Source: Dictyostelium discoideum
Taxonomy: Eukaryota
Length of the DNA stretch: 64,000 nucleotides
Reading direction: 5' to 3'
NCBI GenBank assembly: GCA_000004695.1
Contig: CM000152.2
Span: 5,632,001 to 5,696,000 of the forward strand
The translations under genes and the position numbers were made by a program. Numbering within the stretch: position 1 is the stretch's first letter; each line of letters opens with the position of its first letter. The notes under the pieces are model-generated. The model searched no databases, had not been told where the DNA came from, and saw nothing but the letters and a program-made list of their open reading frames with translations. Shown here piece after piece: positions 20,900-59,388 of this stretch.

Positions 20900-20918
20900 A
20901 ATAAATTTTCATAAAAAT

Positions 20919-20991
20919 GCCCGGCTAGCTCAGTCGGTAGAGCGCCAGACTCTTAATCTGGTGGTCGGGGGTTCGAGCCCCCCGTTGGGCG
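20919..20991 (+). tRNA. tRNA-Lys (anticodon CUU).
   Basis: GCCCGGCTAGCTCAGTCGGTAGAGCGCCAGACTCTTAATCTGGTGGTCGGGGGTTCGAGCCCCCCGTTGGGCG folds as a canonical cloverleaf. It has a 7-bp acceptor stem, a GCTC/GAGC D-stem, a CCAGA/TCTGG anticodon stem with loop CTCTTAA, and a GGGGG/CCCCC T-stem with loop TTCGAGC. A B-box-like GGTTCAATTC lies about 43 bp downstream, possibly an ex-B box. Confidence 0.9.
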
Positions 20992-21683
20992 AATTTTTTA
21001 TTTTAAAATTTAATAGTACACTGGTTCAATTCTTAACTTGGTCCCACCAATGGTTTAAGAGGATTGTGTAATTATTTACCTATTCAAAAAAAATAATAGG
21101 TCACACGAAAGAATTACCAAAAAGAACAATACAAAAAACAAAATCACACCTATAATACCTTCCAACATGAAAAAAGATCATGAAGTAAACATAAACTACA
21201 TTCATTCAAAATTTCATTAACAACATTTTGAATGTTCTATAAAGAAATAGACTATGACCTTTCTAGACATTTTGTATATATAATAGCATTGATTTTACAC
21301 CAAATTTAGATATGGGTTTGGAATAATATACAGCGATGACAAAATTCAGTTAGACTACAACACTATTCTCAAAAAATGTTAAAACATTAGACTATATAAA
21401 AAAAAAAAAAACTTTAAAATATCATCATCAAAAGATTCAATGTCAATCTGAAACAAAAATGAATACCTAAAACAAATTAAAAATATCTAAAATCAAATAA
21501 TCAAAGAATACTGTACCAATGATAGCGTACCAAATAGAGTAATTGTGGAATAAAAAAAATAAATCAAATTATAACAATATAACTAATTGTTGTTATTCAA
21601 AAAAAATTAAAATAATTAAAATAAAATAAAAAAACATTTATTATTGCAGAAGGTTTTAATACTAGCAAATAATTAATTAATAT

Positions 21684-22003: not shown

Positions 22004-22076
22004 CACCCATTGTGGGTCTCGATCCCACGACCTGCAGCTTAGAAGGCTGCCGCAATTCCAACTTTGCTAAACGGGC
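22004..22076 (-). tRNA. tRNA-Arg (anticodon UCU).
   Basis: The minus strand reads GCCCGTTTAGCAAAGTTGGAATTGCGGCAGCCTTCTAAGCTGCAGGTCGTGGGATCGAGACCCACAATGGGTG. The anticodon stem is GCAGC/GCTGC with loop CTTCTAA, and the T-arm is GTGGG-ATCGAGA-CCCAC. The acceptor stem has two G-U pairs. An ex-B-like GGTTCGATGTC lies about 35 bp downstream. ORF 21918..22115 overlapping it is spurious. Confidence 0.8.
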
Positions 22077-45614: not shown

Positions 45615-45651
<37 letters not shown>

Positions 45652-47950
45652 TATAATGGAATTGGGTTTGGAGTGTTCGGGTTATGCCATGATGTGTTGA
45701 AGTTGATTATTAATTGGTCTCTGTTATTTAATTTGTATATTGTTTCATTCCTTTCGATCTTCTTTATTAAAATGAATTTCTCTATTTTAATTAAGTTGGT
45801 TAGTTCTTTTTCAATTAATGTTGGATCAAATGAGGGTGGAGATTTAGATTCGTCTTGATTGAATAGTTTGTGACAAATTATTCTCCATAGTTGATGTATA
45901 ATTATGCCGATTAAATTTGGGTAGATTCTTTCTTTTTTATTTGTTTTGCTAATATCTAGTGAATTGAGATCCCAATTTCTGATCTTGAAGAATGAGAGAT
46001 TGTTGAATGTTGAAATTATTATGTTTTCTATTTCTTTTACTTGCATACAGTCTATAAAAAGGTGAGTGTATGGGTCACGGATTATATTGTTACAGATTTT
46101 GCATGGTACGTTACGTTCATAGTTGATTCCAGGAAGTGACCTTGAGAAAAATCTGAATAGTGTATTTCTACCTTTTTGATGTGATATGTGGTTGATATGT
46201 TGGAAGATGGATGGTATGTTGATGTTATTTATTGAAATTAGATTTTTTTGTCCATCTGTTTTTCTTATTGATTTGTATTTGTGAGTGATTAACATGTTAT
46301 AGATTTCTTTAAGTTGAAGTGGCTTTTTGTTTTGACCTTTGATACAATCAGGTAGTGATTTTAGTTTATTGTGTTGTGGTGCAAAGTTGTTTCTAAAATC
46401 TTTCCATCTGTCTACCATCTCTCTTAATCCAATTGATATATATTTGCTGTTGCTGATTTGTTCCATATACCATTCTTGTAGTATGTTGCATGCTTTTATC
46501 TTGATAATGTGTAATAATCTATTCATGTTCCAAACTTTGAATGCTATTTGTCTGATACCTAAGTCCCACATCTTAATTCCACCTTCTTTCCAATCACCGT
46601 ATGCTCTATCCATTGTCATTAATGTTCTATATTTATGTTCTTCTGTGTATGTATTTTTAATTGCGGAGAAGAGGAACCATTTAATGATATTGTTTAGTTC
46701 AGTAATGTGTGATTCATTTAGTGAGTCTAGATATTGATGGTAGGATAATCTCGATAGCGCATATGTTTTGACAATTGTCATCTTTGCTCTTATTGTAGTT
46801 GCTTGACTTTTCCAATTGTTTAAGCTATCTTTGATTGAGTTGATGATTGATGTGATTTTTGAATTGAGGCCCACTTTCGTGAAATTGAGACCCAAGTATC
46901 TTTCTGGAGCTTCACTAATCTTAAATGGGAGGTTTGGTGGTATATTACCAATGCATATCATAACAGTTTTCTCTTGATTAAGTTTTGAAGATGTACCTAG
47001 ACAGTAGTTGTTGATTTTATCCAATACTAATTTTAATTCTTCTGCTGAGTTGTTGAAAGTTGACATATCATCTGCGAATGCTGTTAGCTTGATTCTTTTC
47101 TGGTCTGATAATTTAAATCCTTTAATTTCGTTTTCTTTAAGTATATCAATTAGTAGTGCTTCCATTACAAGTGCAAATATTGTTGGTGATAATGGATCTC
47201 CTTGTTTTGTGCCTCTGTTAACTGTAATGTGTCCCACCAGGAAGTCATTTATCTTGATCTTATTCGTTGTTTCTTTTAATAGATTCATTATTAATTCTAC
47301 TATCGTTTTTGGTATGCCAATGTGGCTCAATGTTCTTCTGATACTTTTGTGGCTAATTGAGTCGAAAGCTTTGTTGAAATCGAAGAATGTGATTAACGTA
47401 GTACTGTTTCTTGATTTGTTTGCTCTTTCGATTACCTCCTTCATTATTTGAATATTATCTTGGATGTAACGATTTGGAACAAACCCATTTTGAAATTTGT
47501 TTATTATTTTCTTTGTAACTGCAAGTAAACGGTTGTTGATGATCTTACTTAATAGTTTGTAGTCCGTATTGAGTAGAGTAATTGGTCTTCTATTAGCTAT
47601 TTGTAGTTCATCTCCTTTCTTGAATAGTGTTGTGATAAATCCTTCTTTGAATTTTGGATTGATTTCTTTTTGATTAGTTAATGTATCATTAAATACTTTT
47701 GCTAAGATTGTTGAAAGTGATGCAGAGTGGTTTCTATATAATGCAGCATTGATTCCATCTAGTCCTGGAGATTTGTGTGGATTAGAATTTTTAATTGCAT
47801 TATTGACTTCTTTTGGTGTGATTGCACTATCTAATGATAGTCTGGAAATGTATTGTTTGTCCACTATCCATTTATCCAATAGTTCCCTATTTTTTGATTA
47901 TTGATTTAGTTAAACTGAACATATAAACAATGTAATGCATCAAAACACAA
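45613..47950 (-). mobile_element. 5'-truncated non-LTR (LINE, TRE/L1-like) retrotransposon copy. It has an RT domain, a C-terminal Cys/His motif and a 3' poly(A).
   Basis: The 742-aa ORF has no ATG; it opens right after a stop and uses TTG in the track. It begins within the RT fingers: FDFNKAFDSISH, QGDPLSPTIF, FADDMSTF. It ends with CKICNNIIRDPYTHLFIDC. About 35 T on the plus strand (45613..45648) abut the stop, which is poly(A) on the element strand. There is no endonuclease or ORF1. The 5' end lies less than 80 bp downstream of tRNA-Ser and in the same orientation. Confidence 0.75.
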
Positions 47951-47956
47951 AAGATT

Positions 47957-48052
47957 CGACGCCTGCAGGATTTGAACCTGCGCCCCCGAAGGGATTGAAT
48001 TACTCTTTTATATGATTCGAGTCCAACTCATTAACCACTCTGACAAAGCGTC
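47957..48052 (-). tRNA. tRNA-Ser (anticodon CGA), class II, with a long variable arm and an intron of about 15 nt after position 37.
   Basis: The minus strand reads GACGCTTTGTCAGAGTGGTTAATGAGTTGGACTCGAA[tcatataaaagagta]ATTCAATCCCTTCGGGGGCGCAGGTTCAAATCCTGCAGGCGTC-G. The acceptor stem is GACGCTT/AGGCGTC. The anticodon stem is TTGGA/TTCAA with loop C-U-C-G-A-A. The variable-arm hairpin is CCC-TTCG-GGG. The T-arm is GCAGG-TTCAAAT-CCTGC. Confidence 0.8.
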
Positions 48053-48139
48053 ACAATTTTTAGATGATTTTATCTGCATTTCTCAATTGAAATTAGAGAG
48101 GATAATGTTCATAGTAAACTGAATAAATTTATTCAAATT

Positions 48140-48178
<39 letters not shown>

Positions 48179-48514: not shown

Positions 48515-49436
48515 TCATTTTAATATTTTCAATTTTTTTTCAAAGAATTCTTGATATGTTTCAGATGGAAATGAACCGGCAGAGAGCTTATCTAAACACT
48601 TCATCATGTAATTGAAAACAAGAGGGTTCCAGTCTTGTTGGCCCTTGGAAATTATTTGTTTATTTGATACATCAGTAGAGTTGAAACCTAAGCACACCAA
48701 TTCAATATTATTTTTAGTATAGCCTTTCTTGTTGTGGATCCTATTTACAGATAATTTGAAAACTCTATTATTTTCTCCAATATCACCGAGCTGATAGTGA
48801 ATTTGGCTCATCTGGTCTTCTTACAAATTTGGCCTTGGTAATGGCACATCTATCATCATTATTATCACATAGTTTTTCTAATGTTTCTCTTGTTAAACTA
48901 AATTTTCCATATTTTCCATTTTTTTATATGTTGATGGGATCTTTTGTTTGCATTATTTGAAATGTTACGCATAAAATAAGTGTTACCTCCTTTTGACCTG
49001 AATTATTAAAAAAAAAAAAAAAAAAAAAAAATTAAAAACTATAATAAGAATATGCGAAATAATAATAAAAAACTTACAAACACATTTTACATGTCAATAC
49101 ATTTTCTCTTTCATAATTCCATAATGGTTTATCTTGTAAACAACCTATACATTTTTTAAAAATATTAACATCACAATTCTTTAAAAGATCTTTGAAATTA
49201 TCCGATCTTTTAAAGGGAACTATTAATTCATCTTCACTTGAAATGTGTTTCAATTTAAGAAATGAATCTCTTGGATATTTAAAACAATGTTGAGTTATTC
49301 TATGATTAACATCAATATCATTATGATACAAAATACAATGGCCAATATAATTTACAGTAAAAATGTTACAACCAATACAATAACCATTTACTATTTCTGA
49401 ATTTTTTTTTCTTTTTTCAATTCTTCTTCCTCTCAA
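48515..49436 (-). pseudogene. Cys-rich N-terminal domain plus HNH (HNH_3-like) endonuclease-domain gene, apparently fragmented into three ORF segments in different frames.
   Basis: ORF 49074..49436 (MRGRRIEKRKKNSEIVNGYCIGCN...CIGCLQDKPLWNYERENVLTCKMCL) has several CxxC pairs. ORF 48515..48811 (...VNRIHNKKGYTKNNIELVCLGFNSTDV...) matches the HNH motif H-N-N with the N..L..C..CN pattern of phage and homing HNH_3 endonucleases. Between them lies a third open segment (...NTYFMRNISNNANKRSHQHIKKMENMENLVLTRETLEKLCDNNDDRCAITKAKFVRRPDEP) in another frame. I could not find a consistent GT...AG splice path that joins the pieces. Confidence 0.45.
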
Positions 49437-49621
49437 CCATTATTTTTATACATCTAACACAGGTTTCAAAAATTCAACTATAAAATGATGACGGTGAACG
49501 AAGTCTATTACAAAATTTACATATTATAAAACTTTTAAAACTTTTATAAATTGAAAGAAAAAAAAAAAAAAAAGATTAATAATTTTTATAAAATATAATA
49601 CTTCATTGATTAATTTTATAA

Positions 49622-50185
<564 letters not shown>

Positions 50186-50253: not shown

Positions 50254-50306
<53 letters not shown>

Positions 50307-50836: not shown

Positions 50837-50884
50837 CTCACTAATTTCAATTGACAAATGCAGATAAAATCATCTGAAATTTGT

Positions 50885-50967
50885 GACGCTTTGTCAGAGT
50901 GGTTATTGAGTTGGACTCGAAGCATATAAAAGAGTAATTCAATCCCTTCGGGGGCGCAGGTTCAAAT
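50885..50967 (+). pseudogene. tRNA-Ser(CGA) pseudogene. An inverted duplicate of 47957..48052, diverged and truncated in the T-loop.
   Basis: GACGCTTTGTCAGAGTGGTTATTGAGTTGGACTCGAAGCATATAAAAGAGTAATTCAATCCCTTCGGGGGCGCAGGTTCAAAT then TAAGTAG... It lacks the 3' T-stem and acceptor strand and has 2 substitutions. About 55 bp of 5' flank (CTAATTTCAATTGA(C/G)AAATGCAGATAAAATCATCT) is shared with the intact copy. Confidence 0.7.
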
Positions 50968-58377: not shown

Positions 58378-59388
58378 TAACAATTTATTAATTATTATTT
58401 TAATTTATTTTTTTTTTTTTTTTTTTATTTTTTTTATTTATTTTTTAATAAATATATAATAAAAAAAAAAAAGAATTTAAAACAACAATTAAAAATTTTA
58501 AAAGATAATCCAATTGAAGTTTTAAAAAAAGTTAAAGAAGTACCAATGTCAGAATTTTTAGAAGTTAAAGCATTTGATATTAAAGAAAAAATTGAAAATA
58601 TTGAAAATTTAAATGAAAAAGAGATTAAACAAAAAGAAAGAGAAATTAAAAAGATAAAGAATCAAATAGTTTTTGAAATGTCAAGAGAGGAAACATCATT
58701 TGATAATATTTATATGGTTGATTGTTTATCGAAAATGAATTATGCAATTCATGAAATTAAAAAAGAGAAATTGATTGGATTAGATATTGAAGCCATTGAA
58801 ATGGGTAAAAAAGGTGATATTTCATTGGTTCAAATTTCAACACCCAATGGTAGAATCTATCTTTTTGATATTATTAAAATGGGTGCTAATGTAACACCAT
58901 TCAAGTATGGTTTAAAAGAGGTTTTAGAATCTGTTAAAATTTTAAAGGTTGTACATGATTGTAGACGTGATAGTGAAATTCTATTCCATCGTTATCAAGT
59001 TGCATTGGCTCACGTTTATGATGTTCAAATCGCTCATGCTTTGGTTCAAAAAAAGATTCAAGGTAATATTCCAATTCGTCGTTATGGTTTCAATGAATTG
59101 ATTGATCTATATACCTCTAGAAAATATTCAGAAATTTGTATTGATATTAAATTTAAAGTGAAACAACAATTTGAAAATCAACCTGAAGTTTGGGCAAAAA
59201 GACCTTTACCAAAAGATTTCATTGATTATGCAAGTTTAGATGCCGCTTGTTTATTACCAATTTATTATCATATTAAACCAAAATTACAATCAAATTTTGA
59301 TCGTAGATTTTTAAAAACTCATTTTAATGAACAATTAACTTATTTTAAAGATTCAATTAGACAATTATATCCAAGAAATTTAATTTAA
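58073..59388 (+). CDS. 3'-5' exonuclease (DEDDy, RNase D/WRN-exo/Mut-7-like) domain protein. Exons 58073..58331 and 58464..59388.
   Basis: A GTAAGT donor after ...LTLPGR joins an AAAAG acceptor into NLKQQLKILKD...MSEFLEV. Exo motif I is LIGLDIEAIEM, motif II is KVVHDCRRDSEILF and motif III is YASLDAACLLPIYY. Confidence 0.75.

Follow-up and report, generated by a model that had tools for sequence, protein, structure and literature searches.

A broken gene of Dictyostelium discoideum, very probably from a family of PacI-like proteins of a type common in giant viruses

Three short open segments in a 64,000-nucleotide stretch of Dictyostelium discoideum DNA (assembly GCA_000004695.1, contig CM000152.2, positions 5,632,001 to 5,696,000; hereafter the window, 21% G+C) raise the question of whether a nuclease gene stood there, of what kind, and for how long. 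The segments lie on the minus strand between positions 49436 and 48515 of the window, each in another frame, and are present there with strings exactly as quoted in a preliminary description made from the sequence alone. That description took them for a free-standing HNH_3-like endonuclease gene, recently acquired or selfish, with no convincing introns, undergoing pseudogenisation between inverted copies of a serine tRNA gene. The analysis reported here indicates that the locus, 50185 to 48515, is very probably a decayed paralogue of a small Dictyostelium family encoding PacI-like beta-beta-alpha-metal (His-Me/HNH) proteins, a type common in giant viruses. All features are collected in Table 1.

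Family identity of the encoded protein

A profile hidden Markov model (HMM) of 274 modules, from which all Dictyostelium sequences were excluded, was run unfiltered against every six-frame open segment of the window, 1,697 in all. The 98-aa segment matched at E=1.5e-14 and the middle segment at E=0.007, and no other segment among the 1,697 was significant. The flagged sequence is real and more than a chance pattern. A product reconstructed across the frame breaks, used as query, matched the D. discoideum protein ACTFIR_004320 (P0001, 455 aa) at E=5e-61. P0001 in turn has 2,078 relatives when the cut-off is E<=1e-3, of which 181 remain at E<=1e-10 (HMMER, 1.84 billion representative proteins), and among the sequences retrieved, i.e. 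the top matches, the query and cluster members, two tandem modules occur in 134 of the 151 proteins with a module match. A word-indexed protein search gave one match with the reconstruction and five with a Dictyostelium alignment, and missed P0003, P0004 and P0005.

The best sequence match in the PDB is R.PacI (3LDY/3M7K; E=1.3e-5 and 1.1e-4), which was matched by two profiles, one of 50 homologues and one of single units. PacI is a His-Me finger enzyme without the catalytic His, the role of which is taken over by a loop Tyr, and an Asp together with an Asn binds its single metal ion (PMC5714182, PMC4081073). Pfam has no model for the PacI group (“group 20”), which counts 78 giant-virus, 4 bacterial and 6 eukaryotic members (PMC5714182). 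The match is collinear, the CxxC..F..CxxC ribbon of the family aligning with PacI residues 2-48 and the core with residues 87-117, where the family core wkiSleRidnkkgYtkdNvcLicleFn is set against ..VDRSDSFEGYSPQNARLACFICN.. of PacI (qcLGVDRSDSFEGYSPQNARLACFICN). In the family alignment the R, the G-Y pair, the N and the last N vary little or not at all, and the window keeps all of them (NRIHNKKGY..NN..LVCLGFN). Within the window string SVNRIHNKKGY, the R, G and Y are invariant in the 50 homologues and align with R93 and G99-Y100 of PacI. An Arg thus stands in the place of the catalytic His, a loop Tyr (GY) is conserved, the N-terminal Cys4 zinc ribbon is present, and the fold, beta-beta-alpha-metal, is similar to that of PacI. 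The family is a PacI-like His-Me finger of group 20, with the R and the loop Tyr replacing the catalytic His.

Profiles from the PHROG collection agree with a nuclease-type gene of the HNH/His-Me superfamily, a claim of the preliminary description that the PacI, PHROG and HMM matches all bear out. The endonuclease VII, HNH endonuclease and endonuclease profiles matched the reconstruction at 1e-7 to 8e-6. For P0001 such profiles reached 3e-10, and for distant homologues values as low as 9e-49. Two further profiles, phrog_1400 (“Srd anti-sigma factor”, down to 9e-26) and phrog_4592 (“decoy of host sigma70”), are likewise matched by each of the 50 family members, which suggests that the phage proteins so labelled contain a PacI-like unit.

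The AlphaFold model of P0001, computed from an 85-sequence alignment, has predicted local distance difference test (pLDDT) values mostly of 80-97, with block means of 60-98, for residues 165-455. The best viral structural matches are proteins of Yasminevirus, Fadolivirus, Klosneuvirus and Pithovirus, followed by single-unit cyanophage proteins.

An ordinary cellular zinc-finger protein in which an HNH-like string had arisen by chance would account for the many Cys/His motifs of the locus and for the absence of a Pfam nuclease match. But such a protein is contradicted both by the match at E=1.5e-14 to a profile of non-Dictyostelium modules and by the alignment with PacI, and we give this explanation almost no probability.

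Gene model and lesions

Similarity to P0001 extends upstream of the flagged stretch to at least about 49557 (BLAST). The gene probably starts at the ATG at 50185, so that the flagged stretch would be only its 3’ two-thirds. The full locus appears to comprise three exons, the first of which, together with intron 1, is predicted. Exon 1 would encode an N-terminal region of low complexity, bearing a long poly-Asn tract as well as an acidic tail; this exon is collinear with the remaining gene, and its first 57 aa are 37% identical to the N-terminus of ACTFIW_009550 (P0002; pairwise E=0.004). The donor context GA/GTAATTATAA is common to the window and to L001, the contig that carries the gene of P0001 (GCA_054859385.1 JBTAPF010000019.1), and the putative intron 1 falls at the position of an intron in the P0001 and P0002 gene models (NYLD/IKNLKF).

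Exon 2, 35-42% identical to P0001 (tblastn and BLASTP), carries the zinc-binding region. The Cys-rich segment had been proposed to be a zinc-binding module with four CxxC motifs. The module is there, as a zinc ribbon aligned with the N-terminal ribbon of PacI; the CxxC motifs are also there, but number three in the segment (CIGC, CIGC and CKMC), with two further ones (CKFC and CVRC) upstream of it. Intron 2 joins the Cys-rich segment in frame to the downstream part, and the L001 paralogue has an intron at the same position. Contigs assembled from four public runs (L002-L005; L002-L004 are 97-99% identical to the window) represent an allele that is transcribed and spliced in other samples: intron 2 is spliced out in L002-L004, which read ..TCKMCLSKGGNTYF.. 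without a break, and is kept in L005. For one of the frame changes, the assertion of no convincing introns is therefore mistaken. As to whether introns restore the frame throughout, one break is an intron and the others are lesions. Exon 3 holds, in order, a linker helix, the start of unit 1, a deletion junction, the unit-2 core, the C-terminal helices and the stop.

Four lesions were mapped. An in-frame TGA interrupts ribbon 0, where the paralogue has Gly. A 14-bp deletion relative to L001 shifts the frame, and the reading from the ATG frame, MVERKKN followed by a stop, ends there. A run of seven A is found where the alleles L002-L005 have six, giving a +1 frameshift in the window. Finally, a 386-nt deletion took away the last part of unit 1 together with the first part of unit 2, and shifted the frame; the segment deleted in the window is present in L002-L005 (L002 447-830 plus a 2-nt overlap), and P0001 has the corresponding stretch. 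Since a global DNA alignment with MAFFT misplaced the 3’ end owing to this large deletion, BLAST and the allele contigs were used instead. Translation of the window from the ATG would stop after about 187-208 aa, ahead of any nuclease unit. The pseudogenisation that had been suspected is supported: the window copy is a pseudogene, unable to make the ancestral protein, and itself has no likely function. In annotation, the locus should be given as a single three-exon pseudogene instead of separate small open reading frames (ORFs). The L002-L005 allele is without the A7 run and the 386-nt deletion, and has two nonsense codons of its own (NSL-stop-ANRIDN and KGQ-stop-EW) and a 1-nt deletion near the 3’ end.

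Could the gene be intact, with the apparent breaks being errors of assembly or sequencing in the window? One lesion consists of just one additional A within a homopolymer, and recent D. discoideum assemblies with paralogues differ in their gene models, one 1-bp difference being bridged by an implausible “intron”. However, read errors do not typically produce a substitution to TGA, a 14-bp deletion or a 386-bp deletion whose junction is a clean 2-bp microhomology, and the independent allele has nonsense codons and a deletion of its own, identical in contigs from four runs, making this explanation very unlikely. That the gene functions, with its frame restored by unrecognised introns or programmed frameshifting, is extremely improbable. 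One apparent break did turn out to be a true intron, and sister-allele transcripts exist, but the spliced L002-L004 are collinear with the unspliced L005 across all of exon 3, so that there is no further splicing in this exon, the G+C content of which is uniform and exon-like at 30%. Moreover, splicing can mend neither the TGA nor a gap that has taken half of each nuclease unit.

Several results weigh against our reading of the locus as a decayed PacI-like gene. Firstly, Pfam gave no match, HNH_3 and AP2 included, for the three segments, the reconstruction or P0001 (hmmscan; no HNH or AP2 family appears at E<=10), and nothing relevant for ten distant homologues except a sub-threshold AP2 match in P0010. 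The preliminary description had named the lack of a significant HNH profile match as what would refute it, and by this measure the HNH_3 label fails; the family is PacI-like, not HNH_3, NUMOD or AP2-HNH. Secondly, a Foldseek search of the PDB with the full-length P0001 model returned nothing significant. Thirdly, even intact family members may not cleave DNA. Viral modules have Glu at the presumed acidic metal-ligand position in at least 90% of cases, every Dictyostelium copy, the window included, has Asn there, and intact Dictyostelium members may be inactive because this Asn replaces the metal-binding Asp of PacI and the viral Glu. The helix Asn metal ligand is present in the window (GFN), and Asn is able to bind metal in some HNH variants. 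Lastly, the assignment of exon 1 is based on the weak similarity given above, the A7/A6 difference could be a sequencing error, and L002 starts at 49316, so that any sharing of the TGA and the 14-bp deletion by other strains falls outside the view of these contigs.

Table 1 Features of the locus and its surroundings, in window coordinates
Feature	Position	Strand	Remarks
Exon 1	50185..49626	-	Predicted, outside transcript coverage; ORF from ATG 50185
(AAT)n tract	about 49790-49915	-	In putative exon 1; encodes about 40 Asn
Intron 1	49625..49541	-	Predicted; GT..AG, 85 nt, 9% GC
Exon 2	49540..49078	-	Zinc-binding region; homology shown
Ribbon 0, CKFC..CVRC	49521-49450	-	Exon 2
Lesion 1, in-frame TGA	49476-49474	-	..SSFYS-stop-IFETC.., in ribbon 0, exon 2
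Open segment 1	49436..49074	-	120 aa, Cys-rich
Lesion 2, 14-bp deletion	49428/49427	-	DNA alignment A1, columns 224-237
CIGC..H..H element	49379-49323	-	Exon 2
Ribbon 1, CIGC..CKMC	49151-49080	-	Exon 2; aligns with PacI 2-48 in family profile
Intron 2	49077..48998	-	Confirmed; GTAAGT...CAG, 80 nt, 11% GC
Exon 3	48997..48515	-	Homology shown
Lesion 3, A7 run	48925-48919	-	A6 in alleles L002-L005
Open segment 2	about 48923..48786	-	45 aa, ends ...RCAITKAKFVRRPDEPNSLSAR-stop
Unit 1 start (RCAIT..NSLS)	48851-48792	-	Exon 3
Open segment 3	48811..48515	-	98 aa, holds VNRIHNKKGYTKNNIELVCLGFN
Lesion 4, 386-nt deletion junction	48791/48790	-	2-bp “GC” microhomology
Unit-2 beta-beta-alpha-metal core	48760..48680	-	FKLSVNRIHNKKGYTKNNIELVCLGFN; HMM match E=1.5e-14
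Stop TGA	48517-48515	-	End of exon 3
Inverted repeat, arms	47970-48100 / 50837-50967		131 nt, 95% complementary
Intron-containing tRNA	47957-48052	-	Rfam tRNA, 46.5 bits
Inverted tRNA copy	about 50884-50967	+	3’ end missing; no call by Rfam
Poly(A)/poly(T) runs	48140-48170, 50260-50305		Long runs, either side of the locus
Reverse-transcriptase ORF	45651-47879	-	742 aa, RVT_1 E=4.6e-37
tRNA-Lys	20918-20992		ARAGORN
tRNA-Arg	22004-22076		ARAGORN
280-aa ORF	58546-59388	+	DNA_pol_A_exo1 (3’-5’ exonuclease) domain

Paralogues, age and surroundings

The gene is not the lone, free-standing one that had been described. Homologues elsewhere, the search for which had been suggested, were found both in giant viruses and in D. 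discoideum, where the family occupies about five dispersed paralogous loci: P0001/P0002, P0003, DDB_G0284709 (Q54PE4) with ACTFIT_006256, DDB_G0279235, and the window locus with its allele P0005. The paralogues ACTFIR_004320/ACTFIW_009550, ACTFIR_009659, DDB_G0284709/ACTFIT_006256 and DDB_G0279235 share architecture and intron positions with the window gene at 42-63% protein identity, but lie at other chromosomal loci, the flanks are not shared at the two loci compared, and the state of decay differs for each; ACTFIT_006256 reads through both units. Where named, they are only “hypothetical protein”, and the records returned for AX4 are C-terminal fragments of 72 and 102 aa. Such unnamed fragments, including DDB_G0284709 and DDB_G0279235, are hereby given a family assignment, which connects them with PacI and with a large two-unit family of giant viruses that lacks a Pfam model. 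The literature yielded nothing specific on Dictyostelium HNH genes, on giant-virus insertions in Dictyostelium or on the SRA runs.

The gene model of P0001 seems to bypass a 1-bp frameshift in unit 1 (L001 11125-11195), where the break CAITMVEFVKRSDEQ / NSLSANRIDNSITY is skipped via a short, atypical “intron”; in P0002 and in the window this stretch is read in one frame. Either this paralogue, too, is decaying, or the assembly contains an indel here.

Selection was estimated by the Nei-Gojobori method (NG86), the values of which are rough in an A+T-rich genome and are therefore used qualitatively only. The ratio of nonsynonymous to synonymous rates (dN/dS, omega) is about 0.7 between the window and the L002 allele, and about 0.18 between the L002 allele and L001. 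For module 2 of the window against L001, the proportions of nonsynonymous and synonymous differences (pN and pS) are 0.21 and 0.885, and with a pS of 0.69-0.89 the paralogues are saturated at synonymous sites. The family has long been under purifying selection, and the window locus has since been drifting.

The exons have 19-30% GC and the introns 9-11%, which is the normal host pattern. One spliceosomal intron is confirmed and a second predicted, both at positions shared with the paralogue. Together, the host-like GC, the shared intron positions and the saturated synonymous sites argue against the recent acquisition that had been proposed, and the gene is old in its host. A blastn comparison of the window locus with L001 found only the gene itself and low-complexity matches, with nothing in common in the flanks, and the neighbours on L001 are ordinary host genes, e.g. 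a sugar transporter, a terpene synthase and an aminotransferase. With these flanks unshared, there is no sign of a mobile unit, and neither residence in an intron or intein nor a repeated unit was found at the two loci compared.

These data bear directly on the proposal of a recently acquired, selfish gene, of the homing type (HNH_3 or AP2-HNH), that is undergoing pseudogenisation. The gene is a broken member of the HNH superfamily, some of its relatives are fused to AP2 or to GIY-YIG-looking sequence, homologues on giant-virus contigs lie near AP2/HNH_3 genes, and a tRNA gene and a reverse transcriptase, probably of a non-LTR (long terminal repeat) element, lie nearby. All of this would suit such a gene. 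But HNH_3 and AP2 are unmatched in the window copy and in P0001, the GC content and the exon/intron contrast are host-like, both the confirmed and the predicted intron are common to the paralogue, the saturated synonymous divergence and the low omega speak for long residence under selection, and the unshared flanks give no sign of mobility. We consider a recent selfish gene unlikely.

Returning to an old, decayed PacI-like gene, a viral source for the family is plausible, since nearly every relative found is viral or metagenomic. A fuller history can be sketched, though tentatively, since it is doubtful that all of its steps hold together: an old Dictyostelium capture of a tandem PacI-like gene from a giant virus, which would have gained host introns, come under purifying selection and undergone a lineage-specific Glu-to-Asn change at the metal site, and the paralogues of which would now be lost independently and differently among strains. 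Were this history true, the captured gene would have become a domesticated DNA-binding or nuclease protein, possibly tied to conflict with viruses or mobile elements, and some strains may still hold working copies, e.g. ACTFIT_006256. The family also adds to the cases in which amoebae and giant viruses share genes.

The surroundings of the locus were described as a pair of inverted tRNA-Ser copies. The inverted repeat is real, but only one of the two flanking tRNAs is intact. ARAGORN, run on the whole window, leaves this intron-containing tRNA unlisted and finds only the tRNA-Lys and the tRNA-Arg of Table 1. The other “tRNA-Ser” is a 3’-truncated pseudo-copy: the two agree over about 50 nt of the 5’ flank and through the tRNA body as far as the T-arm (..GCAGGTTCAAAT), and then diverge. 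The reverse-transcriptase ORF starts about 78 bp past the 3’ end of the intact tRNA and is probably a 5’-truncated, tRNA-targeted non-LTR retroelement. Long poly(A)/poly(T) runs lie on either side of the locus. Further away, the 280-aa ORF with an exonuclease domain is identical in a Logan contig from SRR26869258, and an ORF at 60688-62949 matches CM142509.1 of assembly GCA_054883475.1.

Comparison with known systems

Pfam HNH_3/AP2-HNH homing endonucleases have the same beta-beta-alpha-metal superfamily fold, and an AP2 domain occurs in some distant relatives of the PacI-like family. They differ in that the catalytic His of their DH motif is Arg in the window, for which there is also no evidence of intron or intein residence.

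Closer are the two-unit proteins of giant viruses (Yasminevirus A0A5K0U6L6, Fadolivirus A0A7D3UQ68 and many metagenomic contigs of nucleocytoplasmic large DNA viruses (NCLDV)), in which the same unit of ribbon, linker helix and beta-beta-alpha-metal core stands in tandem. They are 35-41% identical over unit 2, and their Foldseek matches (E 2.7e-10 and 1e-8) cover more than 300 aligned columns. In the viral proteins the Glu of both SLERxD and EFN is kept and each unit is preceded by a ribbon, whereas the Dictyostelium family has SxNRxN and GFN, lacks the second ribbon, and has a degenerate unit 1 together with extra N-terminal ribbons, a poly-Asn/low-complexity region and spliceosomal introns. 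The contigs of two homologues examined carry genes for an NCLDV major capsid protein, PCNA, poly(A) polymerase, MutS_V and topoisomerase II, and Mimiviridae-type domains of unknown function. On a giant-virus contig with a two-unit PacI-like gene (L006, 18021-20396), two adjacent genes have weak HNH_3 and AP2 matches, so that different HNH-type genes cluster there. Further family members come from dinoflagellate and foraminifer data sets.

PacI itself (group 20; Jablonska et al. 2017, PMC5714182) shares with the family the N-terminal CxxC..F..CxxC ribbon and the core motif x-[D/E/N]-R-x-D-x3-G-Y-x3-N-x2-L-x-C-x2-x-N, with Arg at the His position and the loop Tyr. Its metal-ligand Asp (VDR) is Asn in the Dictyostelium copies. 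PacI has two zinc sites, the second of which is a Cys4 site around the active site (C..C / CFIC), while the Dictyostelium/viral family has a single Cys at each of these places (C.YS / C.EF or C.GF, within G.C.YS and L.C.EFN or LVCLGFN). The window copy, unlike PacI, is a pseudogene. Its ancestral protein would have carried zinc ribbons of the Cys4 type and a tandem pair of PacI-like units behind a low-complexity N-terminus, and was presumably a nuclease; the gene has since been broken by the TGA, the 14-bp deletion, the additional A and the 386-bp deletion. PacI is a homodimer of 142-aa chains with one unit, and one active site, per subunit (PMC3384342), whereas the Dictyostelium/viral family joins two units in one chain. 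Because of this homodimeric organisation of PacI, the two-unit proteins, the ancestral Dictyostelium one among them, may by analogy act as single-chain pseudo-dimers that cut both DNA strands. The frequent joining of PacI-type units in tandem points to cutters of this single-chain, pseudo-dimeric kind.
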